The notes below the pieces were generated by a model that worked only from the letters and a program-made list of their open reading frames with translations, was not told the origin of the DNA and did not search any database. Source: Cyanidioschyzon merolae (taxonomy: Eukaryota). From it: a stretch of 64,000 bases of DNA. Both the position numbers and the translations under genes were made by a program. Where the stretch lies: NCBI GenBank assembly GCA_000091205.1, contig AP006494.2. One strand, written 5' to 3'. Shown here piece after piece: positions 8,587-54,935 of the stretch (its first letter is position 1; every line of letters starts with the position of its first letter).

Positions 8587-10035
8587 AACTCGATCCTGTT
8601 TCACCTCCGTAGTGTTTTGCAGCAGGAGATCGAAATCTCTGTGCAATGTACCCTATAGGTCTTATACGAATCGCTTGTAGGATATATGCTTTACCATATG
8701 GTGCAAGGAGGCTTGGATTCCTCCAGCGGCTCAGTCATACCACAGTACTCTGATGCTCGAGGAAAACTGAAAGTAGCAAGTATATGCGCTCTGTGCGAAC
8801 TCCGATATTCTCAAAGACTGCTTGCGATCAACGGCACGGAAACAACCCGCTGATCACCTTAAGGAATGCAAGTATGATGACAGTAGCCGCCCTAGGTGTC
8901 TATGTTTCTCAACAGCATGTTCGTGTAGTCTGTAAAACACTGGGACAGAATCACAAAAAGTCTTGCTAAACGCACTGCCATCTTCCACCGGAATCGCAAC
9001 GACAGTGTTCCTGGAACGTCGCTATCCGTTTAAAGCGTAGGGATTTCGGTTTTGGTTTTACAGTCGACGAGACTTTTTTCGGGCGAAATGGACAGTACAT
9101 ATTTGAGTATTCGCGGAGAAGCGAGCCCGTTGTATACCCGACGGAACCCGAAGAGAACTCGGATATCATTATCTGTTCTAACTGCAGTGCATATACTTGG
9201 CGGCCTCAGTCCCGCCCTTAGACAAGGCTCAAATAATAGCACGCAATACGCCGAATCATAGAAGACTCTTCCCTGACATCTTGCGACGTTATTGTATTGG
9301 AAAACGTGGCATTGCGCCATTCCACTTGCGTTCGAGCTTTTGCAGAATCTATCGGGGTGGAGCTGTTTTTCATTCCGCCATTTACCCCGTGGCTCATCTC
9401 CATCGGAGGAGTGTTTTCTATCGTGAAACGGAATGACCGTTTCGCTGGGTGGATCGCTGAAGTGTTCAGCACACGGTAACACCGCGGCTATTTGTCTTTC
9501 TTCCACAAGTCCTTTTCCCTCCGGAAAGGTCTTCACGCCAGGACATCAACAAGTGCATTCATTCGAAGAAGTAAAAAATCCAAGAGAAAGCTATGGACAT
9601 GGAAGGCGAGGATCCTGGAAGCCGTGTGTCGCCGGCTTCGACCAAAAACGAAAAAATCCTCTCCTCGCCGACCATTGAGCGAAGAAGAGCAAATAACGAA
9701 GATGGAAAAGGGAGATATGCGAGAAATGGTGTTTGCCCAGCGGGACGATGACGAGGCTGTAGGCACACAAAGGGCATGAGTTTGAGGAGTCCTCGCAAAG
9801 ATGCGTTCAACCAGCGGCTAGAACCGCATGGAGTTCATGAACCGAGACTCGAAAGCTGCTACGAATATCAGGAGATATGCGGTGCTGAAGACGAGACCCG
9901 CGGGGCTGACAAGAGCGAGCCAACTTTCTGGGACAGCCTCTCAGACTCGAAGTGTGCAAGGAAAAGCTGAAGCCGATAGCAGGGACCCGGTCAAAGAAGG
10001 CCGGAACGCGTCTGTGAGTAAATATATACATTTAT
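8587..10035 (+). mobile_element. non-autonomous Fanzor-family element, copy #1 (~1.45 kb)
   Basis: It is collinear at nucleotide level with 48598-50035, and in reverse complement with 19285-20775 and 59400-60810. The 5' block 9540-9700 (aaaaatccaag...ggatcctgg...tcgcc) and the 3' block 9790-10035 (EFMNRDSKAATNIRRYAVLKTRPAGLTR... = degenerate RuvC-III) are shared with the long Fanzor copies. The right terminus is ...ggcgtctgtgagtaaatatatac. Confidence 0.75.
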
Positions 10036-24488: not shown

Positions 24489-25639
24489 TTTTAGAGAACT
24501 TTCAGTAAGAGTTCTTGAATATGTCCCCAATGGAGCAGGTCGAAGTTTTTCCTCGTCAATCCAGTGACGTGCATTGCTGCGTCCGTGGATCACATTGAAA
24601 GAGAAAGATCCAAAACTTGAAACGTATTTGATTTAAGCATGCCAAACCTGAGAAAAGGAGAAGCGTGGAGACTTGTACGTAAGCATTGAATGCTCGATTT
24701 CGGTCATTCGACGAGCCCTCCTTTGGGGGCATCGCAAATCATCTCGGATCCCGCAAATGAAAGAGTTCCGGCGGCTACAAGTCCAGGGAGCCACCCAAAA
24801 ACGCCTCCGAGAATCCCAAAACTATTATTGAATTCGTAAGCACGCATGGCTTCACTTCGAATGCCGAGGCCTTACATCCGAACAGAGTTCGAGAAATCGA
24901 AAACCATGAAGAGAGCGAGCAGTGCTCTCTTCCATTTTGATAGAACCCGGGTCATCGATGCCAAAAACTCGGTGCAGCACTTTCGGATTGTATGCAGCTA
25001 TGCACCCAGTTGCTTTCGAGAAAGCGTCCATTATGCTGCACTCTACCCTAAGGTTCCATTACCCATATTTTCTCTCGGAGGTAATGGTCGTTTTGTACGT
25101 TCTATGTGCGCCAAGTGCATGCCGTGAACATCCGCTGTATGGCCTAAACCGCTAGTGCGGATGCAGCATCGGGACAGTACGGCTTTGCCTTACAACTGAG
25201 GTCGTCGGCTCGAGGCGTGCTGCTCTTGACACAAGGTCGGGATTCATAATCATTCTGGGAGCCTGCAATCTGCGCTGATAGACGTCCTGCCTGCGACAGC
25301 GCGAAGCGATATACTAGGAGATGACTGCATCGTGGGCGACGCCCAGACGCAGCACATCCGCTCCTTGCCCCAGTATAAACGGCTTCGCAGACGAGCTGCT
25401 CAGGTCTCACTATAGCGCAAGCCACTGCCGAGTCTCACTGTAGCGCGAGCCAGGCAGCCTCGTCCGGGTTGCGGGATCTCCCTACTGGAAGGTATACTTT
25501 CGCGAATGCGGCAAACTTTTTCCTCTTCTCACTTTTACCGAAGAGGTGGGGATTGTTATCTCGTCGCTAGTTTGTGCCTAGTTTCTGTTCTTTTTTCTAT
25601 AATGCGCTCGATACGTGCACATCCATATCTCGCAGGCAT

Positions 25640-28168
25640 TAGACACGACGCATATCTCACCGCTGATGGGAAACGCGACCCCTCTCAGATGTAGACTCGC
25701 ACCGGAAACACGCGAAGCAGCATGTGGAGCATGCACTGTTGCTGGGGACGAGGTCCATGTACGACAACATCATGGTCTACCGATATTAAGCGTGTTGCTC
25801 TAACGCATGCTTTCTATTTGCGTTCAAGTCCTAGCAAAATATAGTGTTTGTTCGGAATTCTGCTTCAGCCCACATGCGAGCGTGTCCAAGAGTTTTTTCG
25901 TTTTTTTAGCATACGCGTTCGAAGTGCGCTCACTTTCAAAAATCAAAATTCAAGGAAAAGTTACGGACATACAAGTCCAGGATCCTGGAGGCCCAGTGTC
26001 GCCAGGTTCGACACGAAATGAAAAACAATGCTGAGTCCAGAGGAACAGGAGAAGACGAAGAAGCAGATGCAGGAGGCCAGGCGTCAAAAGCTGCATGAGA
26101 AGCGACAGTATGACGAGATGGCAATGGAAGCCTTTCTTCTACGTCAAATAAATGATCCGTACGAACAAAAGTTGCGAGAGGCTATCAGAAACCGTGTCGA
26201 GTCGTACTCCATGAGTATTATCAAGGCTTCGTCTTGGCTAATGCGTAAGGTGAGTAAGATGTACCATGACGTTACGGGCATCAAAATAGTCGAGGTTCCG
26301 GAGGAATTTTTCAACAAGACATTTGCTCGCCACCCCATGTTTGGCACAGAGTAGGCGTCGACGAGAAATGAGCGAGTGCATGCCCTCTACGAAAACCACG
26401 CTGAGTACCGCTTCAACGGTATTCGATACAGGGGTGATTCGCGTATTCACGAATAGGGAGCAATGCAGTGCGCTACGAACCTGAGGCACCAAATGATTAT
26501 GAACCTCGAACGTTTCGTGATTCGCTCCATCTTTGCGCTGTACCCGGGCCTCCCTCGTAACGGGATATGGAACACTACCAATGCCATCACAAACGGTTGC
26601 CAGCATGAAGATGAGATCGAATTCTTCAGCAAGCAGACATTGCACATTATCAGGAATGAAGATTCTGTTATCCGTGGGGCTGTTCAAGAGCACCGTGCGG
26701 TTCTTTGGCTGGTCAACCAAATAGAAAAGGTATCAGATATGAGAAAAGATGGAGAAGGATGTCGTCCCCTCATCCTCTGCTTTTTCGTGTTTTTGGACCG
26801 AGAAATCGAACGCAAGGCGGAGATGGAGCTGGGTGTGGGTAAAAAGGAAGAAGCAGAGAAACGGAAGGTTGCGCTTCTGAGGAAGCGCCTCAGTGTCGTT
26901 CCGTTGTTCAACATCAAGTCACATTTTGTGACAATCGACTCCGCAGCCCTTTACGTCACCATGAAGGAGATCAGTCCGGAGTTCGATGTGAGGAAGATAG
27001 AATTCACCGGTGAAAACCGGGAGACGTACTGTAAGAATATCTTTGATTTCAAACGTCTGAAAAAAATACGAAAAAGATATTCACAGGGACGATCGACAGC
27101 GATGGAGTATCCATATGCGTACCCTTTCGGCGCTTGAAGACAGATTGTCCTATTCCACCCTCGATATCGCCCGTGACGAAGCATGAGGATAGGAAGGAGG
27201 CGAATCTGGCGACGCAGGAGGTGCAGGAGAACGACTTTGTTGGAGGCGCGGGCCCTAGGAACATGAATATCATAACCACCGCTGCACCCAAGTGTGCGGA
27301 AGATGGAATCGACGGCAACATACGTTAGAAAGACATGCGTCTGTTAAAGCTCTCAAGAGCGAGATATTACCGAGATTCGGGAATAATGAATACGAGGAAA
27401 AAGACTGAGACGTGAAATGCAGGAGGGAATGAGCACTTGGAGGCGCTCAGCCCGGTACCTCTCAACGGAGCGGACTTTCAAGCTTTTCTAGAGTTCATGG
27501 AAACTCGTGCTGCTCATGACGAGGAGCTGTGGAAAGAGTGTACAGAGCACCGGCGGGCTCGTCAGCGTATGAACCTGTATAGAGGGGGCAGCATGCATTC
27601 GCCAAGATCATGAGTCAGTTGAGCGCCCTCAAGGAAGACGAGAGTCAAAAGCTCGTAGTAGCATATCTAGCAGGGCGCTGGGCACCCAACAAAGGTAGCA
27701 TACCCACTTCGTCGACGCGTGCCTACGTGAAGTGCGCACGCCGTTTTTTCCCAGTACCGATGGATGACTTTCGAAAATCCGACCCACACTACGAGTTGGG
27801 GGTGCATACTTCAGAGCTTAGGGATGGAGCGCAAGCAGCAGTGCACGAGAGCGATAGAAAAGTACGAAGAGCTGACGGAGCAGGAAACTGCACCGAGGAC
27901 CCGAGTTCGAGGTCTCCTTCCAACGGCGCGTTCAACCAGCAGCAATTAAATCAAGGAGTTCGTGAACCGTGACTTTCATGCTGCTATCAATTTAAGACGA
28001 TGTTCGGTGTTAAAGACGAGACCCGTAGGGCTGACACGCGCGATCCAACTCTGTGGGGCACCCTCTTAGTCTCAAGATGGTACAAGGAGAAGCAGGAACC
28101 GATCGCAAGCGCCTTGTCAAAAATGGCCGGAAATCGTCTTTGAGTGGGCGTGTCTAAATATACTCCAT
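25640..28168 (+). mobile_element. Fanzor (eukaryotic TnpB-like) element, long copy A, degenerate
   Basis: It is collinear with copy B from the left region (25640-25990 vs 42115-42440) through the protein-coding body to the conserved 3' block (27945-28168). The terminus is ...gtgtctaaatatactcc. Confidence 0.75.
26028..28066 (+). pseudogene. Fanzor/TnpB-like RuvC nuclease gene, copy A (multiple frameshifts and stops; RuvC-I Asp replaced)
   Basis: Segments in three frames are homologous to copy B: the N-terminal DPYEQKLREAI...FFVFLDRE, then [13 protein letters not shown]...NIFDFKRL. The RuvC-I region reads NDFVGGAGPRNMNIITTAAP, with GAGP where copy B has GADPG. The Zn-finger region is KCARRF and RuvC-III is EFVNRDFHAAINLRRCSVLKTRPVGLTRA. 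Confidence 0.7.
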
Positions 28169-35629: not shown

Positions 35630-37705
35630 ATGTTGCGTTTCCTGCTACGTGCAGGCGCTCGTGCCCTGCACAGGGCGCCGGCGTTGGCTACGCTGAAGGT
35701 TCCCGAACCGGTGGTGGAACTCCGTCAGCCGTCGCTCCTTCCGCAGCGACGCCTTCGCTCAACAGGCGCTGTACAAGGCGATGTCGTTGGAATCGACCTC
35801 GGCACAACCAACTCGTGCGTTGCGATCATGGAGGGTAAGGCGCCACGAGTCATCGAGAATGCCGAAGGACAGCGCACGACACCATCGGTGGTGGCGTTCA
35901 CGTCCAGCGGTGAGAGGCTCGTAGGCATTGCAGCGAAACGCCAGGCAGTAACGAACCCAGAGAATACGATATTTGCCGCCAAGCGTTTGATCGGCCGGCG
36001 CTACGAAGACCCGGAGGTTCAACGCGATGTGAAAATCATGCCCTATAAAATCGTTCGTGCCGACAACGGGGACGCCTGGGTGGAGGCCCAAGGCAATCGG
36101 TATTCGCCAGCACAGATCGGTGCATTCGTACTGCAAAAAATGAAGGAAACAGCGGAGTCCTTCCTGGGCCGCACAGTGAATAATGCAGTGATCACTGTGC
36201 CAGCCTACTTCAATGACGCACAACGGCAAGCGACGAAGGATGCTGGTCGTATTGCAGGGCTCAATGTTTTGCGCATTATAAACGAACCAACAGCGGCGGC
36301 GTTGGCGTACGGTTTGGACAAAGCGGATGAAGGCAGAGTTGTAGCAGTGTACGACCTCGGTGGTGGCACATTTGATGTATCGATCCTAGAAATCTCGGGC
36401 GGTGTCTTTGAGGTGAAAGCGACGAACGGTGATACGCACCTCGGTGGCGAGGATTTTGATAACGTGCTGCTGAACCATCTGGTGAGCGAGTTCAAGAAGG
36501 ATCAGGGCATCGATTTGTCGCGAGACCGGCTGGCCCTGCAACGCTTGCGCGAAGCGGCGGAGAAGGCCAAGGTCGAGTTGAGCAGTACCATGCAGACTGA
36601 GATCAACTTGCCTTTCATAACAGCGGACGCCAGTGGACCGAAACATATGAACATGAAGCTCACCAGAGCGAAGTTTGAGTCTTTAGTGGACCATCTTGTG
36701 CAGCGCACACTGGAGCCCATGAAGCTCTGCCTGAAAGATGCGGGAATGTCTGCGAAAGATATTTCTGATGTGCTACTCGTTGGCGGTATGACTCGCGTGC
36801 CTGCTGTGCAACGGCTGGTTCAAGACTTTTTCGGTAGAGCTCCGAACAAGAGCGTCAATCCCGACGAGGTCGTGGCGATGGGTGCGGCAATCCAGGGAGG
36901 CGTTCTGCGCGGTGACGTCAAAGATATCTTGCTCTTGGATGTAACTCCACTCTCGCTGGGCATCGAGACTCTTGGTGGGGTTTTCACGAAGCTGATTCCG
37001 AGAAACTCGACGATTCCAACGAAGAAAAGTCAAGTGTTCAGCACCGCAGCTGATAACCAGACTCAGGTTGGTATCAAGGTTCTCCAGGGCGAGCGACCTA
37101 TGGCCGCCGAGAACAAACTCCTGGGACAGTTCGATTTGGTCGGCATTCCCCCGGCGCCGCGTGGTGTTCCCCAGATTGAAGTGATTTTCGATATCGATGC
37201 GAATGGTATCCTCCATGTCAGCGCTGTTGATAAGGGTACTGGAAAACGGAATGAGGTGGTAATCACGAGCTCCGGCGGCTTGTCGAATGAAGAGATTGAG
37301 AAGATGATTAAGGACGCTGAAATGCACGCTGAAGAGGATCGGCGGCGCCAAGCAGCTGTGGAGGCGAAGAACGAGGCAGATTCACTTTTGTACACTACAG
37401 AACGAACGCTGAGCGAGCACCGGGCCAAACTCAGTGCTACTGACGTGGAGACCGTCGAAAAGGCTGCACAAGACCTGCGTGCAGTCCTCGAGAAAGACGC
37501 TACCGCTGCAGATACGATACGCGAAAAGACGAAGGTATTGCAGCAAGCGGCCATGCGCATCGGCGAGGCAATCTACCGAGCCTCGCAGGCCTCGCAATCT
37601 ACTCAGCAGGCGCAACAGTCTCAAAGCGAGACCCCCGAGGCAGAATTCAAGGATGTGAACCAGGACAGTGACGAGAAGAAGCAGCAAGGCAAGGGAGGTT
37701 CGTAA
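35630..37705 (+). CDS. mitochondrial-type HSP70 (DnaK/mortalin-like) with N-terminal presequence
   Basis: An R-rich presequence is followed by [43 protein letters not shown] and a C-terminal lid. Full length in one ORF. Confidence 0.95.
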
Positions 37706-38219: not shown

Positions 38220-38640
38220 GAACAGTGCCATACTTTTAGCGACTGCAACACACCGCCATGCACATCACAACGTCTCCGCAGACAGTAGTCGTCATCCGGA
38301 TCCCGTTGCACACGGATGCAGTGCAGAGGAACGATGCGCGCACCAGCAAACGCCTTTCAGAAAGCGAACGACGCCAGCGGTGTAGAGTAGTGGCGGCAAC
38401 CGCGCCCTGGACAATACGTCTCCAGCTTAGGTGCAGACGCCTCCTCGTCTTTCTCGACCGGCCACCTACTACTGCCTCCAACTTTTTCTCATATAGTTCC
38501 ACTTTGAGTGATTGTCCGACAAAATTCTCTCTGGTCAGCTCCGCAGGTCTTGTATCCATCATTGCACCAAGCCCGGAGACTAACCAACAAGTCACTTGCG
38601 GCCTTCCGAGAAAAGATAACGAATTAACGGTACATTAACG
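38220..38640 (-). mobile_element. Fanzor-family 3' fragment (#4), 5'-truncated at the LINE junction
   Basis: Its reverse complement matches copy B 44640-44905, including the C-terminal tail TRENFVGQSLKVELYEKKLEAVVGGRSRKTRRRLHLSWRR and ~100 bp beyond ggcgtctgcac. A degenerate RuvC-III remnant lies at about 38610-38635. Confidence 0.65.
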
Positions 38641-39334
38641 AAGAAGCAACACCAATAGAGGACTCTACAATAGGAAAAGAGACCCAACCAGATACGGAGA
38701 GGGAGGCACAAAGGCCTCATGATCCACCTAGATGCAAAATAACCAGAGAAAGCAGCTCAGGAAAGAGCCCGAAGAAGAAGAAGGCCAACGAGAAAAAATA
38801 GATGAATAGAAAAAAGAACTCCCGAACGAGCCCATCACAACTTGTTCCCCGAAAGAGCACCCCAGCAGGAACTCAAGAAAGCTGCCGCCAAACCAAGTCA
38901 CCTACTCACAGCGCTGAAGATGCGAAAAGCCGTGCATACAAATCTTTAGACCAATTGGCACGCGAGTATGTAGATGGGAATCAGAAGATTGCCAGAGAGC
39001 TGGGACTGCTTGCACCAGAACGTAACAGTTGCAAACCTCAGTACCTGAAACGACGTACCAAAACTCGGATTGATGAATGCCACCGACTCTATAAAATCGT
39101 CAACCGCACCGCCATACGCGCCAACGCCGGAGACAAGGAAGCGAAGGCAGCGCTACCGGTGCCACAGGCGCAACATGAAGAAGCTATCAAAAGAAAGAAG
39201 AAACTTTCCAGAGAAGACAAACGAGAGGATCGAAACCGCAGAATCGCCTCCCTGGCGAAATCTATGTTGGAGAGCACCAACGAAGATGAGACCTGGCGCT
39301 ACATTCGATCGAGACTGGACCCACCAAAAAGTGC

Positions 39335-40679
39335 TTGGGGCTCACACCAATCGTTTATAAGAAAGCGCTGAGGACGGAGAGTGCCTCAGTGAATGAGGCC
39401 TGGACGGACCACGGCACAGAATTACATGAAGACGCAACTGGGCACTGCCAAGACAGAATCTATTGGCACCAATGTGCTGCCAAACTACAGCGCCTCGAAC
39501 CGGTACCGGAATGGAACGACCCAATCTTCTGGCCTGAATCTGTTCGGACCCTGCTATGCTCAAGCAACCGCAAAACACCTGGCATCGACGGTATCTCTGC
39601 GGAGTGGATGATACTGGTGACCCCAGAAGACGGGACAACAGGGACACCATCGATACCAGATGAACTTGACACAAGCTTAGGCAAACGCCTTTTGGAGCTC
39701 ATTCAACGCATGTTTGAAGAGGCGTACATCCCGGATGTATGGAGGACTGCCGAGGTCGTACCGATCCTCAAAAAGGACTCCCACACATACACAGACATGA
39801 ACATCTACCGGACTATGCGCCTCATCCCGTCAATCATGAAGCTACTTTGCGCCATGCTCACGAACCGGATCCAGAGGCGCCTCGAGGAACGCAAGTTCTT
39901 CGCCCCAGAACAGGCTGGATTCCGGAGCCGCGAGGAGTGCATGAGCCATGCCCTGACCCTCATTGAAGTGGCGCAACGTCGCTTCATTAGCGACCAACAA
40001 CCAGCTTACGTATGCTTCATCGACTTCCAAAAGGCCTTGGACCCGGTCCCGCATGAGGCTCTATTTCTGAAGATGCAACGAGCCGGAGTCTCCGGAAAGT
40101 GCTTAGCGTTCTTCCGTGCGCTCTATGCAGACTCGTGGATGCGCATCCAACTGGGCGACTGCTCAAGAACCCCTTCCATAAGAATCCACCGTGGACTGCG
40201 ACGGGGCGACCCCACATCCCCGCTCCTTTTCAAAATCTTCATCAACGATCTGCTGAACATCTGCAGACAATACGGGCTTGAGGTGCCGTGGATAGACTGT
40301 GGAGATGCCCGATGAGGAGCCCTCACATAGGAACCGCCTCGCAGGCCGTCTATTTGCGGACGATGTCGTGCTGTTGGCACCCGCCCCGGGAACGCTTGCG
40401 GCTAGCATGGAACAAGTCAGCGCCTGGGCCGATCGCTGGGAGATGAGCATAGGAGCATCGAAGTGCGGCGTCATGGTCATCCATGGAGACTCGCAGAGCA
40501 TTCGCAATCGCTCGTGGCGGTTGCAGAATCAGGAAATTCCGATCGGGGAAAAATATCGCTACCTGGGGGTCTGTCTCACGCCGACGCTCGACGAAAAGGC
40601 ACACGTTGACGAGATGATCGCCAAGATGCATAGACGTACAGCGATCGCACGCCCAGTCCTATCCGACCTATCCCCTTAG
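39335..40679 (+). pseudogene. LINE reverse transcriptase domain (frameshifted)
   Basis: RT domains 0-7 are readable across ORFs 39335-40315 and 40299-40679. Confidence 0.75.
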
Positions 40680-40934
40680 CAATCCGTACCAGGGCACTAA
40701 GGATGTGTATCATCCAGCCTGCGACCTGGGGTGCTGAATGGTGCGGCATGAAGCACCCAAATGCCTCGCGTCTGCAGACAGCCGCCAACAGGGCAATGCG
40801 ACTCGTTGTAGTTGGATGCTCAATGCAGAGCAGAGCAACCAACCCGCTGGCACTCGGACTTGAACTCCAAATAGCCTCGATAGAAGCGATAGCGGCAGGC
40901 TGCCGGGCACGCATATGGGCCAAAAGGGCCCACC

Positions 40935-41954
40935 ATGTACACCTGGTTCAGTCGGAGTTTCATGCAGACCCCAACGCACCGCAAAAACACTTGGATGAAA
41001 TCAACGCAGATTTGGCTGAAGCGCCTCTTAGGAGACAACACGCTCCAATCGTTCCCCAGAAATATAGAATTCTCCCGTCTCCTGAAGCGAACGGTCCAAA
41101 CAACAGTACGGGAATGTAGACATGCAGTCAGTCGCGCGAGTGACGCCGGCTTGACTCTATACTGGAACTACAACCTAGCATACACATGCAAGTACTGGTG
41201 GGAGGCGCTGGGGTTCCCGGGACTTGCTCGCGGCAGCCAGTGGCTCGCCAAAATCCGCGTTGGTGGCTTCTGGCTGGCACCGGCTCTAAGCCGTATAGGA
41301 ACACCGGAATCGCACTGGGAATCACACTGTCCCTGCTGTGGAGACGAGATCCCCGAGACGATGACATATTTAGGCTTACAGTGCCCGCGCTGGAAACAGG
41401 AGCTGGACGTCACCGTGATATTCAAAGGCCGGACACTCACTTTGAGTGTAGCACTGGCAACTGATGGTCTGTTAACGGAGCCTCAGCGCTCATTAGTTGC
41501 GAACAAACTCACACTCTACCTTCTAGGCGGAAGGTCCAGCGAATCGGATGCGCACACGGGCCCAGTGCTCTCTGCGCCTACCTACTGGTGGGTGTCAAGC
41601 AGAAACCCGCATTGCCAACCGACAACAACGCATTCCATGCATGATCACGAAGGAGAGAGGCGGCTCCCAGGATTCATTCTAACAGTCAAGTTTCTCCAGC
41701 GTGTCGTGCGGCGAAGACAAGCCTGCATCCGCAGACTATCCAAGCACAAACTGACGATGAGACCGGATTCTACGTCGGGTGAACCATGCCTCGAGCCGAC
41801 GCCCTCTGTGGTATGGAAAAGCCGTTCTGTCTCCGTGCAGCGACCGCACCGGCGCTTTAGGCGCCATTGCTGTCGCTTTCGGCAGGCTCGGCACACGATA
41901 GGACGTATGAAACGACCAGAATATCCAAAACGAAGTACAGGTAATGTAACTTGA
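40935..41954 (+). pseudogene. LINE ORF2 C-terminal region with CCHC zinc knuckle
   Basis: CPCCGDEIPETMTYLGLQCPRW... lies downstream of the RT in the same element, after a frame break. Confidence 0.5.
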
Positions 41955-42493
41955 GTGTAAGGGGTTGATGGATACCTCACCGCGCACTGAAAAAACACAA
42001 AAAGAGAGAAAGAAAAGAAAAATGCGCACAATCGGAGAACGCTGGCACAAGGAAACGTTTTGTTCATTCTAAAAATCGCACTCGTTAAGCGCACCTGGGA
42101 GATCAGGCGGTCACCTGACACGACGTGCATGTCGCCATTGAAGGGAAACGCGATCCTGATCAGGAGCGTACTGCTCTACTGTACAAAATTTTATTTGCGT
42201 TAAAGTCGTAGCAAAATACAGTTTTTCAATTCATTTGTGTTTCAACCCTCAAACAAGTCTAGTCAAGTGTTTGTTCGCAGTATATTATATAAGGGTTCAA
42301 AGAGCGTTCTTTTTCAAAAAACTAAAAAAAAGGAAACCTATGAAAAAGCAAGTCGACGATCCTGGAGGTCCAGGGCCGCAGGCTGCTAGAAAAAAACAAA
42401 AACACTGCCGAGTCCAGAAGAAAATGAAGAGAAGGAGGACTGAAAGGGGAGGCTCTACGTCGAAGGCGGCAAGAAAGACAACTGTACGACGAG

Positions 42494-44760
42494 ATGGTGG
42501 TGAAAGCCGGTCTTCTTGAACATATCAAGGATCCGTACAGGGAAAAGTTGCGAGACGCTATCAAAAAACGTCTCGATTCGTACTCCAAGAGTATTGTCAA
42601 GGCGTCGTCAGGACTGATGCATGTGACGAGGGAGATGTATGAAGACGTGACGCACATCGGAACGGTCGAGATTCCGGACGAGTTTTTCGACAAGACCTTT
42701 ATTCGTCATGTGATGCTTGGTACAGAGGAAGCACGGAAGGAAAATGAGCTAGTGCATGCCCTCCACGAAAACTTCGCGGAATTCCGCTTCGAGGGCACTC
42801 GGTACAAGGGTGACTCGGATATGTACACATATGGGGCAATGAAGTACATTACGAACCTGAAGAACCATTTGACAGAGAACCTCGAACGTTTCATGAAACG
42901 CGTCGTGTTTGCACTCTACCCAGGCATCTCTTGCAATGGAAAATGGGCGATTATCAATGGCATCACGAACGATCGAAAGTATGAAGATGAGATCGAATTT
43001 GTCGACAGGAAGGCGCCGAGAGTGAGCGCGAAAGAAGCTTCTGCGATCCGCGCGGTTTTACAAGAGCATCGTGCGCTACTGGGGCTGGCGAATCCAACAG
43101 ACAAGATATCAGAGTTGAAAAAAGATAAGGAAAGATACTATCGCCTCGTCCTGCGGTATTTCGTGTTTCTGGATCGTTAACTCGAACGCTAAGCGGAGAT
43201 GAAGCTGAGTGAAGAGACAAATGAAGAGTGGGAGAGACGGAAGGCTTTCCTAATGGGGAAGCGCTTCAACGGCGTTCCAATGTGCAAGATCAAGTCACAT
43301 TTTGTGACTATCGACTCCGCAGTCCTTCATGGCATCATGAAGGAGATCAGTCCGGAGTTCAGTGTCAGCAGGGAGGAATTCTCCGGTGAAAACCGGGAGA
43401 CGCACTGGAAGAATATCTTCGATTTCAAACGCCTCTAAGTAAGCAAACAAAGGGTATTTACAGGGTTGATCGAAACAGATGGAGTAGCCTTGTGTGTACA
43501 CTATCGGCGCTTGAAGACAGATCGTCCAGCACCGCCCGTTACGAAGGATGGAGAAAAGGAGGAGGCTGGTCCTGCGACACAGGAGGTGGAGGATAATGTC
43601 CTTGTCGTTGACGCGGCGAAGGATGAGGATCAGAAGGAAGCGGGTCTTGCGATGCAGGAAGTGCATGAGAAGGACCTTGTCGTTGACGTCACGAAGTATG
43701 AAGATGAGAAGGAGGCGGAACCTGCGATGCAGAATGTGGAGGATAACGACCTTATCGTTGATGCGGCGGAGCATGAGGAAAACAAAGAGGAGGATTCTGC
43801 GACGCAGGAAGTAGAGGATAACGACCTTGTCGTTAACGCGGAGAAGCATGAAGAAACCAAGAAGGCAGGTCCTGTGACACAGAAAGTGCAGGGTAACGAC
43901 TTTGTCGTTGGCGCGGACCCTGGGAATACGAATATTATAGCCGTCGCTGTACCCAAGCGTGCGGAAGATGGTGCTGACGGTAACTTGCGTCAGAAAGACA
44001 TGCGTCTGTTGAGGTTCTCGAGAGCAAGATACTATCGAGAATCCTGTATAATGAATGCGAGGAAGAAAATCGTCAAATGGAATTCAGGAATGAAAGATCA
44101 CCTGGAAGCTTTGAGCGAGGTGACGAGTCGAGGAGCGGACTTTAAAGCTTTTCGGGAGTTCATGAAAGTTCGCGTTGCCCATTGGGATGCACTGGGGGAG
44201 GAGTATACCAAGCCCCCGGTGGGCTCGTTTGCGTATGAATTTGTATTTTGGGAAGCAGCGGGCGTTCGCGAATTTTTTCAATCAATTGAGTGCCCTGAAG
44301 GATGATGAAAGTCAGAGGCTCGTAGTAGCGTACGGGGCAGGGCAATGGAAGACCCAAAAAGGAACTACGCCAGCTCCAACGACGAGGGTGTACAAGGAGT
44401 GCGCAAGGCGTTTTGTTACAATACCTGTAGATGAGTTCCGAACATCGTATACACACCACGACTTGGGGTGTACACTTCAGAGCGTGGAGTTAGAAAAGTG
44501 CCCGCGGAGCCTTGAGGATATAAAAAAGTATGGACCGCTGACGGTAGAGCAAAATGGAAAGGATGTCGAAAGTTCGTGGACTACTTGCATTAATAAGTAG
44601 AACCAGTGATGGTAAGAAACGTATGGAGTTTGTGAACCGAGATTTTAATGCCGCTATCAATATAAGGAAATGTGCGGTGCTGGAGAATAGACCTCCAGAG
44701 TGGACAAGAGAGAACTTTATTGGACAACCTCTCAAAGTGGAACTATATGCGAAAAAGTTT
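42494..44760 (+). pseudogene. Fanzor/TnpB-like RuvC nuclease gene, copy B (two in-frame TAA stops and at least 3 frameshifts; introns not excluded)
   Basis: The N-terminal region is MVVKAGLLEHIKDPYREKLRDAI...RYFVFLDR. RuvC-I is [19 protein letters not shown] (43900-43950). It is followed by ...LVVAYGAGQW... and the Zn-finger-like region YKECARRF...GC...KCP. RuvC-III is MEFVNRDFNAAINIRKCAVL (44624-44665), and the C-terminal tail is TRENFIGQPLKVELYAKKFEEVVCGRSRKTRRRL. Confidence 0.75.
43563..43862 (+). repeat. 4 x 75-bp in-frame tandem repeat inside Fanzor copy B, immediately upstream of RuvC-I
   Basis: The units are [75 protein letters not shown] and [25 protein letters not shown]. The native fifth unit [21 protein letters not shown] follows. 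Copy A has a single unit. Confidence 0.9.
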
Positions 44761-44889
44761 GAAGAAGTGGTGTGTGGCCGGTCGAGAAAAACGAGGAGGC
44801 GTCTGCACGTCAGTTGGCGACGATTTGTCTATGGCGCCGGCCGCTACTACTGCACGCCGTTGGCGTCTTTCGACTTTCGAACGGCGTTG

Positions 44890-46959
44890 ATGATGCCCTG
44901 CGTTCGTATGAGGCGTTCGTTTTCGAAAATAGCGCTGTGTTCCGCTGCGGCTTTTGTTTCGTCTGCAACGGTGCTGTTGCTTGGCGGGTATGACTCGCGA
45001 TGGTACACCCCTTTGGTTGCGAGAGCGCACTCGGCTAGCGTGGCGTCTGTGGACCACGGGCCGTTGCCGGTGCTCGAGACGCCACCGCGTCGTCACGCGC
45101 AGCTGCGAGTGTTAAAAGAGAGCGGCATGCGTTATGAATCTGTCCAAAAACGGAAAGCCGAAGCTGGAGGCGACGGCTCATCAAAAGAGGCTATGAGTGC
45201 AGTGGTACCGAGCGCTTTGCCGGAAGACGGCCTCTTCGATATTCTCGTCGTTGGTGGCGGCGCGACCGGCTCCGGCGTTGCACTCGACGCAACGCTCCGT
45301 GGACTCCGAGTTGCTCTAGTAGAGCGGAACGATTTCGCGTCTGGCACGTCGTCTCGTTCGACGAAACTCATTCATGGTGGTGTCCGGTACTTGGAAAAGG
45401 CGTTCTTTCGTGCTGACCCTGCGCAACTAAAGCTCGTCTTCGAAGCTTTGCATGAGCGAGCGATCATGCTCCGTCAAGCGCCTCACTTGACACAACCGCT
45501 GCCGACGATCCTGCCGTGTTACAAATGGTGGGAGATCCCATTCTATTGGGCTGGGCTCAAGGCCTACGACTTTCTGGCCATCGCAGGCAATGGCGCGCTC
45601 TATATGAGCAAGTTCCTCTCGGCGGCGGAAGCGCGGCGTCAGTTTCCGACCCTTTCAGCGCGCCGTGGCCGGGACGGCGCCACCCTCAAAGGCAGTATTG
45701 TGTACTACGATGGCCAGATGGATGACGCGCGATTCAATGTGACGCTTGCAGTGACGGCGGCGCTACACGGGGCAGTGATTGCAAATCACACTGAAGTTTC
45801 GGGCTTGATCAAGGATGCCTCAACTGGAAAGGTCATTGGCGCAACAGTTCGTGATCGTTTCACCGGAGAAGAATTTCCGGTCTACGCGCGAGTGATTGTG
45901 AACGCAACCGGCCCGTTTGCGGATCGGATACGAGCGATGGACGAGGGACCTGAGGCGCTCGGTCCCCAACGCATGATAGTTCCGTCATCTGGGGTGCACG
46001 TTACTCTGCCCAGTTACTATTCTCCGGAAGGCATGGGTTTGATTGTACCAAAAACGCGCGACGGTCGGGTTGTCTTCATGTTGCCATGGTTGGGATCGAC
46101 AATTGCCGGCACCACGGATTCAAGCACGGAGATTACGGACATGCCACGTCCGCATGAGGCGGAGATTGAGTTTATCTTAGACGCGCTTCGTGATTATCTG
46201 AACGTGGAAGTGCGTCGAAAGGATGTTCAGAGCGCATGGAGTGGTATTCGACCGCTTGCAATAGACCCCAAAGCGAAGGACACACAGAATATCCTTCGTG
46301 AGCACACAGTCCACGTCTCTGGCTCGGGTCTGCTGACCATCGCGGGTGGCAAATGGACGACTTACCGAAAAATGGCACAGGACACTGTGGATACTGCTAT
46401 CAAAGTTGCAATGTTGGAGTCTCGCGTGAAGCACAAGTGCTTGACAGAGAAGGTCATCCTCACCGGAGGTCATACTTATGACCCGTCGTATTTCGCTTTT
46501 CTCACGCAGCACTATGAAAGAGTGAAATACTCTGTCAGTAAGGGTGCCAAACTCCAGACCACGACGCTGGACGTAGACATAGCGCAACATCTTGCTCGAG
46601 CCTACGGAGATCAAGCTTACAAGATCTGCGATATTGCGAGCAGGGAAGATGCTGGTTACGGCAAACGCATTGCGCATGGCTACCCGTATATTGAAGCAGA
46701 GGTCGTGTACGCAGCTGAAAACGAATACTGTGAGACAGCCCAGGACTTTTTGGCGAGACGCTCGCGTCTTGCGTTTCTGAACGCCCGGGCGGCGAAAGAG
46801 GCGCTTCCCCGCATCGCTGAGATTCTCGCTGAGATCCACGGCTGGAGTCGCACCCGCTTGCAGACGGAAATGAAGGAGGCAATGGAGTTTCTCGAGACGT
46901 TTGAGTCCGGTCGTACGACTGGTGAGGTCGGTGAACAGGTTGAAGCAGTGGCCGCATAA
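44890..46959 (+). CDS. FAD-dependent glycerol-3-phosphate dehydrogenase (mitochondrial GPD2/GUT2-like)
   Basis: An N-terminal presequence is followed by DILVVGGGATGSGVALDATLRGLRVALVERNDFASGTSSRSTKLIHGGVRYLE and the C-terminal G3P-oxidase domain. The ORF track fuses it in-frame to the Fanzor 3' end. The start is placed at the first Met after the element, and MRRSF at 44911 is an alternative. Confidence 0.85.
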   Translation: MMPCVRMRRSFSKIALCSAAAFVSSATVLLLGGYDSRWYTPLVARAHSASVASVDHGPLPVLETPPRRHAQLRVLKESGMRYESVQKRKAEAGGDGSSKEAMSAVVPSALPEDGLFDILVVGGGATGSGVALDATLRGLRVALVERNDFASGTSSRSTKLIHGGVRYLEKAFFRADPAQLKLVFEALHERAIMLRQAPHLTQPLPTILPCYKWWEIPFYWAGLKAYDFLAIAGNGALYMSKFLSAAEARRQFPTLSARRGRDGATLKGSIVYYDGQMDDARFNVTLAVTAALHGAVIANHTEVSGLIKDASTGKVIGATVRDRFTGEEFPVYARVIVNATGPFADRIRAMDEGPEALGPQRMIVPSSGVHVTLPSYYSPEGMGLIVPKTRDGRVVFMLPWLGSTIAGTTDSSTEITDMPRPHEAEIEFILDALRDYLNVEVRRKDVQSAWSGIRPLAIDPKAKDTQNILREHTVHVSGSGLLTIAGGKWTTYRKMAQDTVDTAIKVAMLESRVKHKCLTEKVILTGGHTYDPSYFAFLTQHYERVKYSVSKGAKLQTTTLDVDIAQHLARAYGDQAYKICDIASREDAGYGKRIAHGYPYIEAEVVYAAENEYCETAQDFLARRSRLAFLNARAAKEALPRIAEILAEIHGWSRTRLQTEMKEAMEFLETFESGRTTGEVGEQVEAVAA

Positions 46960-48597
46960 TGACGTGAGCGCAGAGCGTATGTATTTCAAAAGTATCATCT
47001 TCTTGATCGACGAGACTGGCAAGTCACCTTGGTAACTAGGAGCGAGCGCGTGCCCTTTTACCCAGTCCCTGGTTCCAAACTGGAAACGATCGGGCGTACG
47101 GATGGATTTCGTATGCGTTGAACAGCGTCGCTGGTGCTTAGGCTTGGAGCGTTCGTCCTCATGAGCTGCTGAATGCTCTGCGATCAAGATATCTGTAAAC
47201 ATATCGTGCATGAGTGGCTGATCATGCGTGGCACCGAGAGCGCGCTGCAGCTGGATGAACCTGGAATCGACAAGCTGCGGTCTAGCTTGCACGCGGTGCC
47301 GCGCTAGAGTATCCTGGGTTCTTGGCAGCTCTCGAAACTGAGTTTGTACTGGACGGGAGACTCCCGAAGGCGGACACGTTAAGAAAAAGTAGCTCGCTGG
47401 CTGTACCGGACATTGACACTGCTTTTCCTGTTTCTCAGTGCCAAGAAACGAGTAATAGACAATAACGCGCATTTCCCTGAGTTGCTATCGTGGTTTTCGG
47501 CACCAGGCTGAGCCGACGGCTGAACACACGAGCACGACAGTTGACCCTGCTCCCAGAATCCTGTGCATCGATGCATCACCGCTGCGCTGCGCACTTGTTC
47601 GCCATCATTTCTTCTCGGGATCGAGCGCATTCCCAGGCGCATCTTTCGCTTGAACATGCCAGTCGCAGTGCAGTAACGAAACTGCATGAAATGGACGCGC
47701 ATGGGAAGCGCGATGTTCACGAGAGCGTCGTCACGCGCTGCGCCTTGTCAAAGGCAGATGCGATCAGTAACGCGACAAACGTTTTACGATCGTGGAGTAT
47801 GTCTATATATGTGTAGACCCGCCCCTAGACGCCCCCCGGCCTTTTGCGACCGGTCTCCTGTTATCCGCTTCAGTCTATGCAGACACACTTCGCGCCTGAG
47901 AGGCTACACCATGGAGTTGGATGGACCCAGCTCCTTGGGTCTCGTCTACAGAATCACACATCCTCTGATACCGATTGCGGCGTTGACTGCTCTACGTTCA
48001 CGAAGTCCTTGCGTGCAGTTCTGTTAGTTGAACTCACTATTGCAAGGGTTGCGAGGACATGTGCCCTCTGTGCCACTACAGTCTCCTGTACCTCCACTGT
48101 TCTTCTTCTTGTTTGTCACTTGCTCTCCTTGGCTCTATGGTCGGCGAGTAGAGGATTTTTCGGTTTTTTAATCGAACCCGGCGCCACCGGGCCTCCATGA
48201 TCTTTGACTTTTATATTTGTAACTTTCACTTAGATTATTTATTCTTTTTAAATGAACGCACTTCGAGAGCATCTGTTATAAACCGCGACAAAGAACTTGG
48301 TGACGCGCATCTGAGGGATGGAACACAATTCAGATGAAAGACCGCAAGTGTGCACAACGAGTGCAGTTCGTTTGTGCGCGGGGCCCTTTGGAGGTAACTG
48401 GTACAATATGTATTCTTTTCTTGCGTATTTCAGAGCAAACGATATGTCTGTTCGCACCATCGCATCCGCGCATGCGCCTTCGCGGAATACCGGGTTCAGA
48501 AGCTCTTCTCCTTTATCTTTTGGGACGAAATAGACAACTCTTCTAGTCTTTTAACTCAGTTTTGGTCCGCGCACGCTGAATGGAATAGAATGCTATT

Positions 48598-50035
48598 TGG
48601 TAGTGGATAGCACGAGATCGACGTCAAGATGCAATGCACCCTATAGATCGCAGACGAATTCAGTATAGGATATGTATTCTATGCTGACCAGTACACGGAG
48701 CACTGGATTCCTCTTTAAGATCAGTGATACTACAGTACTCTGATGGTTGAGGAACACTGAACGAAAGAAGTGCATGCGCTCTGGGACAAGAACCAATATG
48801 CCCACGGCGTGCTTGCGATCAATGCTAGGAAACGACCCGTTGATCACTTTAGGGAACGTAAAAGTGCCGATCGTAGTCGCCACGGGCGTCTCTGTTTCTC
48901 AAAGGCTTGTTTGCGTGCTCCTGGAAACACCGGGATACAGTCGCCTAGAAGAATCCCAGCTCACTCACTACCACCATCCACCGAAAGCTGAACGACAGCG
49001 TTACGGGAGCGTTGCGATCTGTGTAGAGTACAGGGACGTCGATGGGTCCCAGTCGATGAGACATCCCTCGGAAGATACCATCGAAGCGTATAAGGATATT
49101 CGTGGAGCAGGGCACCTATTGTGCGCACCATCAAACTCGAAGAGACTAACGACATCATCGACTTTTCTAGCAGCAGTGGACTCATTTGGCAGCCTCACTT
49201 TCGCTGCTAGAGAAGCTCCATCTAACAGCACCAAACTCTTTGCCGAATCATTGAAGACTTTTCCCTGACGTCCGGCGACGTCATTCTATTAAACAACATG
49301 GAATTTTACCATTCCACTTGCGTCCGAGTATTTGCCCGTACTCTCGAAGTGTAGAGCTGGTTTTCACACCCGAGTACGCTCCATGCTTCAACCCATCGAA
49401 GGAGTGTTTTCTGCTGTGAAACGTAATGATCGCTCCATCGGGCGAATTGCTGACGCGTTCTCAGCGCACGGCGACGCGGGGACACATGTGGCCTCTCTTG
49501 CACAAGTCCTACCTCCTCCGGTGATGTCCTCACCGACGAGCATAGACAAGTGCGTTCATTTGAAGAAATAAAAAATCCAAGGGAAAGTCATGTAAATGGA
49601 AATCGAAGATCCTAGAGAGGCATCATCGCCGAGTTCGACAAAAAAATCCTCTTCTCGCCAAACATCAAGCGAAGAAGAACGACTGAGAAAGGAGAAAAAG
49701 AAGAAGAAGGCAGGAGATAGACCAGAGAAATGCTTGCCTAACCAGGCGATGACGAGATTGTGGCGCCACAGCGAGCACGACTTCTAGCAATCCTTGCATT
49801 GGTGAGTTCAACCGGCGTCAATGCACGCAAAGAGCTCGTGAACCGAGAATTCAACGTCGCCATCAGTATCAGACGATTTTTGGTGCTGAAAACGAGACCC
49901 ACGGAGCTAATGCGATCCAACTTCGTGGGCAGCCCCTCAACTTCGAAGAAATACCTGAATAAACTGAAACCGATTGCAGGCGGGCGGGGGGTCAGAAAAT
50001 GCCCGGAGGCGTCTACATGCGGGTATCTATATTTA
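48598..50035 (+). mobile_element. non-autonomous Fanzor-family element, copy #5
   Basis: It is collinear with copy #1 throughout. The 5' block lies at 49520-49700 and the 3' block at 49835-50035, with ELVNREFNVAISIRRFLVLKTRPTELMRSNFVG. The terminus is ggcgtctacatgcgggtatctatattta. Confidence 0.75.
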
Positions 50036-54067: not shown

Positions 54068-54195
54068 CGTGGGCTCAGTATCCGCAGGAACGCTGAACAA
54101 ATTGAAGCCCCGTTTCCGCAGGCAAATACTGTGCTGAAGGCTTAGGCTCAGCATCCGCAGGAACGCTGAACAAATTGAAGCCCCGTTTCCATGGA
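54068..54195. repeat. two ~48-bp direct repeats (..catccgcaggaacgctgaacaaattgaagccccgtttcc..) separated by ~35 bp
   Basis: Direct reading of 54068-54115 and 54150-54195. Intergenic, upstream of the RING-protein gene. Confidence 0.8.
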
Positions 54196-54935
54196 GAAAC
54201 ACCGCGGTCAATCCAGATATACGAATTAGGCAACCCCGAGTGACGGCGGGCGCTTCTGTCGTGTCCGGTGGCCTGGTGAACCTCCGAAGAAACCTGGGTG
54301 GATGACTCAGTATTGCGCCACGAAACGCGGCAGCAACGTGTTGGCAGCGGCGGTACTCGTTGGAGGCAACTCTTGAGAGCAGCGTTGCCGGTTTTCTATC
54401 CATGCGCGTCGTGAAACCATCGAGCTGTGCAGTTCACCAGGAAACGGCAAGAATATACGAAATCGAAAAGTTTATGCAGGCGTGCTTTCTGTACTAGTCT
54501 TTCGGATGTAGTGCGGGCAGCGCGATGACCGTCGCTCTCTCTGCTGGGCAGCTGCCGCGGCGCATCTGCACTGAACTGCTTGCTCACACGCTGGGTGACG
54601 CCTCGACGAAGGATGCAGCTGCGCTTCCGTGACTGAAAGGCCACCGACTGCAGCGATCGAGTCGTGCGCTAGTGCATTTGCGTGACGCCCCAAGCTCAGC
54701 GCTGAATACATCATTAGGTTTCTTGGCAGACATGGTCAGCCATTTGTGCACAGGCTCATTGAGATCGAAATCGCAGGTGTCAACCGCGCGCTCATTTGCC
54801 GCCAAATACAGGCGCGTGGTGCGGTCGCCAGACGAGTGCTGGAGCAAGCAGCAGCTCGCAGGGGGAGCTCACGGATCAGGCGCTTCTCCAGTCGCCACTT
54901 TGCTGGTGTCAGTATAACAGCAGGATCAAAGGAAA

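Follow-up and report, generated by a model that had tools for sequence, protein, structure and literature searches.

Fanzors, RNA-guided nucleases of eukaryotes, are related to TnpB and Cas12 and hold interest for genome editing. In Cyanidioschyzon merolae, one Fanzor1 family, CMe-1A, was described by Bao & Jurka 2013 (Mobile DNA 4:12, PMC3627910), with ~150 copies that are each ~80% identical to a consensus of ~3 kb, no terminal inverted repeats (TIRs), undetermined target-site duplications (TSDs), an unknown classification, and some copies still intact; the 5' 635 bp of this consensus are identical to TE-N2_CMe. Fanzors in the Rhodophyta were again reported by Jiang et al. 2023 (PMC10530073), where replacement of the canonical RuvC-II Glu by an alternative conserved Glu downstream is given as a Fanzor hallmark, a nuclear localization signal (NLS) and a 3' guide RNA are listed as Fanzor features, and an association of Fanzor1c with long interspersed nuclear elements (LINEs) is noted. 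The present analysis concerns a 64,000-nucleotide stretch of C. merolae nuclear DNA (contig AP006494.2 of assembly GCA_000091205.1), referred to below as the window, in which a preliminary description made from the sequence alone had placed a long Fanzor element, copy B. The core of copy B was located at 42075-44888 on the + strand and is very probably a dead member of CMe-1A, the C. merolae family of transposable elements that carry Fanzor1 and no transposase. Because this family was already described in 2013, among the founding Fanzor families, the locus is not new, and a pseudogene copy adds no new system.

The likeness to CMe-1A extends to the species, the Fanzor1 protein, the multi-copy state, the length of ~3 kb, and the absence of TIRs, recognisable TSDs, and a transposase; in both, most copies are decayed and a few are still open. 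Copies of the present family are ~70-85% identical to one another, the 71 related loci obtained from a scan of metagenome contigs show mostly 70-89% nucleotide identity, and seven Fanzor-derived pieces lie in the window (copy B, a second long copy A, a fragment C, and four short pieces running from RuvC-III to the end). Copy B differs from CMe-1A in that it lacks an upstream module, at least 170-420 bp long, that is shared by at least 17 related loci. Matched by description, this module is probably equivalent to the 635 bp that the published consensus shares with TE-N2_CMe; on the same basis, that consensus is most simply read as the shared upstream module followed by the core 42075-44888.

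Translation of copy B in three frames gave a continuous Fanzor-like polypeptide on the + strand with two frame changes. Frame 2 extends at least from 42446 to 44215 (...RRRRQERQLYDEMVVKAGLLEHIKDPYREKLRDAI...FVFLDR..., then RuvC-I), frame 0 from 44217 to ~44553 (RWARLRMNLYFGKQRAF...LVVAYGAGQW...PVDEFRTSYTHHDLGC...), and frame 1 from ~44554 onward (MERMSKVRGLLALISRTSDGKKRMEFVNRDFNAAINIRKCAVLENRPPEW...RRRLHVSWRRFV). A tblastn search with the near-intact paralogue P0001 matched 42443-44724 in three collinear segments of 73%, 74%, and 86% amino acid identity (E = 0), the match spanning 739 residues. All peptide motifs quoted in the preliminary description were found on this strand in the three reading frames, among them YKECARRF... 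with VDEFRTSY at 44424-44450 (frame 0), and the match to P0001 lies far beyond chance. The features of the core are as follows.

42075-44888, + strand: core Fanzor1 element, copy B; 2814 bp, including a tandem-repeat expansion of 300 bp (2514 bp without it)
42340-42342, + strand: candidate ancestral start ATG (MKKQVDDPGG..., with a basic NLS-like tract); uncertain, in a frame different from that of the body
42446-43177, + strand: N-terminal half, REC/WED-like, helical; frame 2, FVFLDR ending at 43177
42530-42562, + strand: DPYREKLRDAI; frame 2
43542-43916, + strand: five 75-nt (25-aa, acidic) tandem units; Tandem Repeats Finder period 75, 5.0 copies, score 372
43895-43951, + strand: RuvC-I motif with GADPG; frame 2, catalytic Asp codon GAC at 43916-43918
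44319-44348, + strand: RuvC-II position, LVVAYGAGQW; frame 0, without the canonical Glu, AYG invariant
44424-44450, + strand: relocated Glu motif, PVDEFRTSY; frame 0, Glu codon GAG at 44433-44435
44448-44619, + strand: degenerate zinc-finger segment, YTHHDLGC ... RGLLALISRTS; second Cys pair gone
44623-44664, + strand: RuvC-III motif MEFVNRDFNAAINI; frame 1, catalytic Asp codon GAT at 44641-44643
44680-44888, + strand: candidate omegaRNA scaffold, predicted; overlaps the end of the open reading frame (ORF) and reaches the right end of the element
44889-44908, + strand: 3' flank, the would-be guide-encoding sequence; includes the ATG at 44890 of the downstream gene

To compare residues across the family, the frame-stitched conceptual protein of copy B (repaired copy B) was included in an alignment of 27 sequences (A1), which also served as the family profile. 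The RuvC-I Asp (D375) is invariant in A1, as are E547 of VDEFRT and the RuvC-III residues D616, N618, and A620 (NRDFNAAINI at 44635-44664), and the codons for the catalytic D, E, and D are all kept in copy B. E547 lies 34 residues after the AYG region and aligns to DEFRTS in PpFz and to DEYKTS in SpuFz. Copy B thus shows the rearranged catalytic site that is a hallmark of Fanzors, with no Glu in LVVAYGAG and an invariant Glu in VDEFRT. The zinc-finger segment had earlier been called degenerate, and A1 bears this out: the segment is present, but the second Cys pair and most metal ligands of the CxxC...CxxC arrangement of Fanzor1 have been lost. Copy B and all close members of the C. merolae clade read THH(D/E)LGC...RGLLAL(I/V)S (A1, columns ~820-890). 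The Cys loss is stepwise, from CxxC...CxxxC in distant members, through HHxxGC...WC in the clade of ~42% identity, to HHxLGC...AL in the C. merolae clade. Progressive Cys loss raises the question of zinc binding by the C. merolae clade.

The N-terminal half contains the ORF 42494-43180 (MVVKAGLL...FVFLDR). Its counterpart in a structural model of P0001 is mostly helical, with a predicted local distance difference test score (pLDDT) of 80-95, and relatives carry the precomputed Pfam assignment DUF8286 in the matching region. An N-terminal stretch of "~330 aa" had been given for DPYREKL to FVFLDR, which in fact measures ~216 aa; the whole region before RuvC-I comprises ~365 aa plus a tandem-repeat expansion of 100 aa. 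Basic tracts (KKTKKKE..., RRRRQER) were seen in translation upstream of MVVK. The 75-nt tandem units directly precede RuvC-I and end in its first strand (NDLVVDA). Their number varies in the family, with one unit in copy A, several in P0001 and P0009, and differing numbers among P0001, P0002, and P0009; disorder is predicted for the stretch (pLDDT below 50 at residues 374-471 of the P0001 model). On the opposite strand, a periodic 184-aa ORF at 43295-43849 (-) is the reverse strand of the 75-nt repeat and not a gene.

A search of a 5.8-billion-protein collection recovered 80 relatives, many of which are fragments with 60-86% identity. Apparently complete relatives of 610-702 aa show ~41-43% identity (e.g. 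P0049 and P0053) and distant ones 24-37%, and two of the latter exceed the PF07282 gathering threshold of 26.3 (P0077 with 30.0 bits and P0079 with 29.3 bits). When the family profile was compared with solved structures, it matched PpFz1 from Parasitella parasitica (9cf0, E 2.5e-20), SpuFz1 from Spizellomyces punctatus (8gkh, E 2.6e-17), and GtFz1 from Guillardia theta (9cer, E 8e-7); the profile matches were limited to these three sets of structures, all of them Fanzor1. The AlphaFold2 model, made for P0001 (a paralogue of 73-79% identity) and not for copy B, had a pLDDT of 77.7 and a predicted template modelling (TM) score of 0.72. With this model, the top seven Foldseek hits were Fanzor1 PDB entries (E 2e-15 to 3e-13, target-normalised TM up to 0.69), and TnpB, Cas12f, and Fanzor2 gave marginal hits with E ~0.06 or worse.

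The family profile, the P0001 fold, the conserved D/E/D, and the eukaryotic nuclear chromosome bear out the call of a Fanzor/TnpB nuclease in the preliminary description and narrow it to Fanzor1. The profile comparison suggested there succeeded with the 27-sequence profile but not with the repaired protein alone, and the structural comparison, carried out through the paralogue, favoured Fanzor1. The characterised structures SpuFz1 (8GKH, 9CEU-9CEZ), PpFz1 (9CF0-3), and GtFz1 (9CER-T) share with the C. merolae clade the overall fold (target-normalised TM 0.5-0.69), the RuvC-I Asp, the relocated Glu in DEFRTS, the RuvC-III Asp, and a long helical N-terminal half. Sequence identity to the clade is only 12-14%, however, and the C. 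merolae proteins have lost most of the zinc-finger Cys and add the variable acidic 25-aa repeat before RuvC-I. Furthermore, the three are biochemically characterised nucleases, whereas the C. merolae clade is known from sequence and model and copy B is a pseudogene.

The ends of the element were determined by comparison with the 71 related loci, as a result of which the boundaries first proposed, 42115-44905, were replaced by 42075-44888. The 3' terminus is sharply defined: 44888 is the last aligned base in 17 alignments, the flanks beyond ...TTCGACTTTCGAACGGCGTT are unrelated among loci, and the terminal sequence conserved across loci is ...GTCGTTCGACTTTCGAA(A/C)GGCGTT. At the 5' junction, homology begins at 42075 (ATCGCGCTCGGTGAGCGC...), with 14 of ~55 alignments starting exactly there and differing contexts upstream. 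Several unrelated sequence classes are found upstream of the equivalent position. The first is the shared module already mentioned. The second, seen in copy B, the orthologous metagenome locus L014, and the paralogous loci L023, L031, L020, and L016/17, consists of the A-rich 3' end of a LINE; the third is T-rich and common to copy A. Unique contexts also occur, including a reversed LINE fragment in L001. Given the sharp 3' end and a 5' start of homology preceded by differing classes of sequence, 42075-44888 was treated as the core, which in copy B starts directly after the LINE poly(A). No TIR joining the two ends and no TSD was seen, and the flanks ...TTCTAAAA and GATGATGC... share nothing.

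A canonical Helitron was considered because of the missing TIR and TSD and a subterminal 3' hairpin, and was rejected: the termini are ATCGCG...GGCGTT and not TC...CTRR, and T-specificity is absent from the 3' flanks. In the upstream module of L005, L036, L063, L070, L073, and others, ~60-250 bp before the equivalent of 42075, the sequence ATGGGCAGTAGC...TTCTAC/GTGAGT...GCTGCAG was observed, which resembles a short, start-codon-bearing first exon with an intron after it. Such an arrangement might account for the absence of an in-frame ATG before the body of L001, the best-preserved copy.

Lesions in copy B were scored against L001, an open paralogue with a collinear coding sequence that is 85-94% identical.

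43178-43180, + strand: nonsense TAA; GAC (Asp) in L001
43190-43192, + strand: nonsense TAA; AAG (Lys) in L001
43436-43438, + strand: nonsense TAA; AAA (Lys) in L001
44213-44217, + strand: frameshift 1, an extra C in a C-run, frame 2 to 0; AAGCCCCCGG compared with AAG-CCCCGG in L001
44551-44554, + strand: frameshift 2, an extra A in an A-run, frame 0 to 1; GCAAAATGG compared with GCAAA-TGG in L001
44830-44832, + strand: family stop position; TAG in the consensus (alignment A4 of 43 3' ends), TAT in copy B and L014

There are therefore three in-frame TAA stops, one more than had been reported, and the "several frameshifts" are real but number exactly two in the body, each a 1-nt homopolymer insertion relative to L001. 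The candidate start at 42340, the one plausible ATG upstream of the body, is followed by a TGA at 42425, and the equivalent ATG in L001 is out of frame there too; relatives of ~42% identity start with MPPKGKRKK..., ~75 aa before the conserved xVVK motif. With three TAA codons, two insertions, a lost stop, and an out-of-frame start, no intact ORF is present, and copy B is a pseudogene, unable to make the protein. A near-complete frame survives in only 1 of the 71 metagenome loci. L014 is 97-99% identical to the copy B locus through both flanks and shares with it at a minimum frameshift 2 and the lost stop, which indicates that copy B was inactivated before these strains diverged from their common ancestor.

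Exact matches of six long window ORFs to C. merolae strain 10D proteins in the range BAM80793-BAM80808 identify the DNA as part of an 859,119-bp nuclear chromosome of this strain. The element lies within the spacer that separates the gene for mitochondrial DnaK (35630-37705) from that for FAD-dependent glycerol-3-phosphate dehydrogenase (G3PDH).

Annotated ATG 44890, + strand: G3PDH (mitochondrial-type), BAM80805, 689 aa in the NCBI annotation

The Fanzor pieces of the window have no NCBI protein accession and are known only from JGI, ENA, and Logan metagenome assemblies, where they are unnamed ORFs. In Cyanidiococcus yangmingshanensis, of the sister genus (L074; VWRR01000015.1, 258920-268956), the DnaK-G3PDH spacer is 857 bp long, compared with 7.2 kb in C. 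merolae, and no Fanzor or LINE homology was found in these 857 bp. The C. merolae spacer is therefore the product of lineage-specific insertions; the L074 spacer shows no residual similarity to it, so the exact empty site is not reconstructable. The block PDT - mtHSP70 - G3PDH - biotin synthase - NUDIX is syntenic in L074 and C. merolae, and the L074 spacer between G3PDH and biotin synthase also lacks the ~1.4-kb repeat seen at 48609-49980 in the window.

This position raises the possibility that the 3' part of copy B was co-opted by the host as promoter, 5' untranslated region, or N-terminal extension of G3PDH and was retained for that reason. The core ends at 44888, one base 5' of the annotated ATG at 44890, and the change of the stop from TAG to TAT lets the last Fanzor frame run on, in phase, into G3PDH, giving an ORF at 44554-46959 of 801 aa (or 823 aa) that metagenome gene callers label as G3PDH. 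The same insertion, and with it the Fanzor-G3PDH arrangement, is also present in the environmental strain loci L014 and L075. However, conservation between strains at 98-99% identity is expected from recent common ancestry alone, and the NCBI annotation uses the 689-aa form of G3PDH. In Cyanidiococcus, the orthologue begins at the Met equivalent to 44908, the conserved ATG, and is preceded by the unrelated 857-bp spacer, which argues that the extension is not ancestral. Co-option was considered rather unlikely.

The LINE that abuts the core on its 5' side bears on how the family may have spread.

38611-42074, + strand: non-long-terminal-repeat retrotransposon (LINE); RVT_1 E 2.1e-14 in the ORF 39335-40315

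It contains a C-terminal CCHC-like ORF (40935-41954), its A-rich tail lies directly against the Fanzor core, and it belongs to a repeated family present in many loci. The junction LINE-poly(A)/ATCGCGCTCGG recurs in L023, L031, L020, and L016/17. In at least 5 independent paralogous loci, the core 5' terminus stands base-for-base against the LINE poly(A), with a reversed LINE in L001, and other Fanzor copies have reversed LINE 3' segments a few hundred bp upstream. Among the metagenome loci, 5'-truncated copies with an intact 3' end that are not cut by the contig number at least 8 distinct cases, and 3'-truncated copies are essentially absent. The recurring junctions and the truncation bias together hint at 3'-anchored spread or a link to the LINE. 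That the core is functionally coupled to the LINE, or spreads by a 3'-anchored, 5'-truncating mechanism, was nevertheless judged quite unlikely. Two forms of coupling are possible: target-primed reverse transcription of the LINE could start at breaks made at Fanzor element ends, or the transposase-less Fanzor element could be mobilised by the LINE machinery. If true, either would give the family a transposition mechanism. Transduction of the Fanzor core as a LINE 3' extension was ruled out, as no poly(A) follows the 3' end.

The preliminary description had left it open whether the element was decaying or intron-containing, and it is the former that stands. A functional gene in which splicing removes the stops and frame changes has some precedent in that Fanzor genes in other eukaryotes acquired introns (PMC10530073), and the module upstream of some related loci, with its ATG...GTGAGT...CAG, is exon/intron-like. 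Copy B lacks this module, however, and each TAA replaces a sense codon of the collinear L001 as a point substitution, whereas the frame changes are single extra homopolymer bases. No inserted segments and no GT...AG boundaries were found around any lesion, and the peptide continues uninterrupted across each of them. C. merolae is, in addition, extremely intron-poor. A spliced, functional copy B is therefore very improbable indeed.

Comparison with TnpB of the IS200/IS605 and IS607 types (ISDra2 TnpB, 8H1J) shows a common RuvC core, the RDxNAAxNI motif, and the lack of TIR and TSD, and a guide RNA would by analogy be expected from the 3' end of the element. The TnpB-like RuvC-III motif, together with PF07282, a Cas12f1-like/OrfB zinc-ribbon family, as the only Pfam contact, could suggest a prokaryotic insertion sequence that arrived by recent horizontal transfer or contamination. 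The best profile and fold matches are exclusively Fanzor1, however, and TnpB 8h1j is only marginally matched (E 0.065 over 273 columns). There is no canonical RuvC-II Glu, the N-terminal half far exceeds that of TnpB in size, and no TnpA-like ORF or Pfam match was found in 42075-44888, nor is a TnpA present beside the element. Copy B sits in a C. merolae chromosome, flanked by a LINE and host genes, and the family is multi-copy in red-algal contigs, so that a prokaryotic insertion sequence is very improbable. Fanzor2 differs as well, both in structural comparison (ApmFz2 9b0l, E 0.065, query-normalised TM 0.13) and in protein length (~400-500 aa, compared with ~650-750 aa). Chance resemblance in non-coding DNA, for which only the non-significant single-sequence Pfam and PDB searches could be cited, is excluded by the tblastn match to P0001, the 80 homologues with E down to 0, and the Fanzor1 profile and fold matches.

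An intact element of the family would be expected, by analogy with characterised Fanzor1 and TnpB systems, to encode a RuvC nuclease of ~650-750 aa with its catalytic residues in GADPG (Asp), VDEFRT (Glu), and NRDFNAAINI (Asp). An omegaRNA would be transcribed from the ORF 3' end through the right end of the element, its 3' tail, the guide, being copied from flanking DNA. The ribonucleoprotein would then cut guide-matching DNA next to a transposon-adjacent motif (TAM), and such RNA-guided cutting may favour retention or spread of the element. In copy B, the putative guide would be taken from the flank GATGATGCCCTGCGTTCG..., where G3PDH begins. Conservation within the element is highest over its last 330 nt, with 84% mean column identity across the 43 3' ends of A4. 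Individual copies recurrently fold into a long-range helix CAGTAGT/ACTACTG plus a terminal hairpin of 10-11 bp at 44864-44886, and the consensus can form both. A hand-drawn four-helix structure, in which one helix is mis-registered, pairs in 82% of cells, compared with 32-56% when slid.

A number of results weigh against this account of copy B. Pfam searches with the five raw ORF pieces and stitched copy B returned nothing significant, the best being PF07282 (Cas12f1-like_TNB) at E 0.066 over 11 residues, a contact confined to the NRDFNAAINI stretch, and phmmer with stitched copy B against the PDB gave no match; since the single-sequence searches are not significant, membership of the family depends on the close paralogues and the family profile. 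The clade-wide loss of most Cys ligands might mean that even intact members are catalytically or structurally atypical. For the omegaRNA, covariation in the hand-drawn structure was not above that of shuffles, RNAalifold on 32 3' ends yielded 3 pairs only and a further alifold run was similarly poor, the fold z-scores of the 3' region were weak (-1.64 and -0.66), and an Rfam scan of 41500-45500 gave no match. The 5' flanks belong to several unrelated contexts and yielded no TAM or target-site motif, and Fanzor is the sole ORF family in the element, so that no transposase is carried from which a transposition mechanism could be read. Finally, the equation with Repbase CMe-1A was made by description and not by consensus sequence.

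The value added to what was known of the family is descriptive, and consists of base-precise core termini, a list of lesions, the clade-wide loss of zinc-finger Cys, the variable disordered 25-aa repeat before RuvC-I, and the recurrent contact between the core 5' end and the LINE tail. The fused 801-aa ORF serves as a warning for annotation, as loss of the Fanzor stop creates an in-frame 'G3PDH' in metagenome gene calls. C. merolae is genetically tractable and thermo-acidophilic, and an intact member of the family could offer a convenient, natural setting in which to study the role of Fanzor1 in its own host.

The remaining family pieces and repeats of the window are as follows.

25601-28060, + strand: copy A, second long copy; 45-51% amino acid identity to P0001, ~72% nucleotide identity to copy B
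38349-38567, - strand: fragment C, the last ~220 bp of a family member, 5'-truncated; 80% identity to 44672-44888
8621-9983, + strand: ~1.4-kb repeat family, one of four copies that are ~68-70% identical
48609-49980, + strand: ~1.4-kb repeat family, as above
20686-19269, - strand: ~1.4-kb repeat family, as above
60785-59434, - strand: ~1.4-kb repeat family, as above

Copy A belongs to a more diverged subfamily and is more decayed, and its coordinates are approximate at the 3' end; the region upstream of it (25300-25600) is common to the 'type 3' loci L018, L049, L050, L053, and L071. Fragment C is isolated, with 43 bp between it and the LINE 5' end. An additional piece of the ~1.4-kb repeat family is present at 47817-48263 (-). 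The four short RuvC-III-to-end pieces form the 3' part of the ~1.4-kb repeats, the last ~480 bp of which, downstream of a first part of ~940 bp, look like an internally deleted Fanzor, with a short 5' piece joined to the part from RuvC-III to the 3' end. Elsewhere in the window, a pair of adjacent direct repeats (67 nt each, 84% identity, spaced 73 nt) was observed at 54072-54211 (+), just upstream of a RING-domain gene at 54936.

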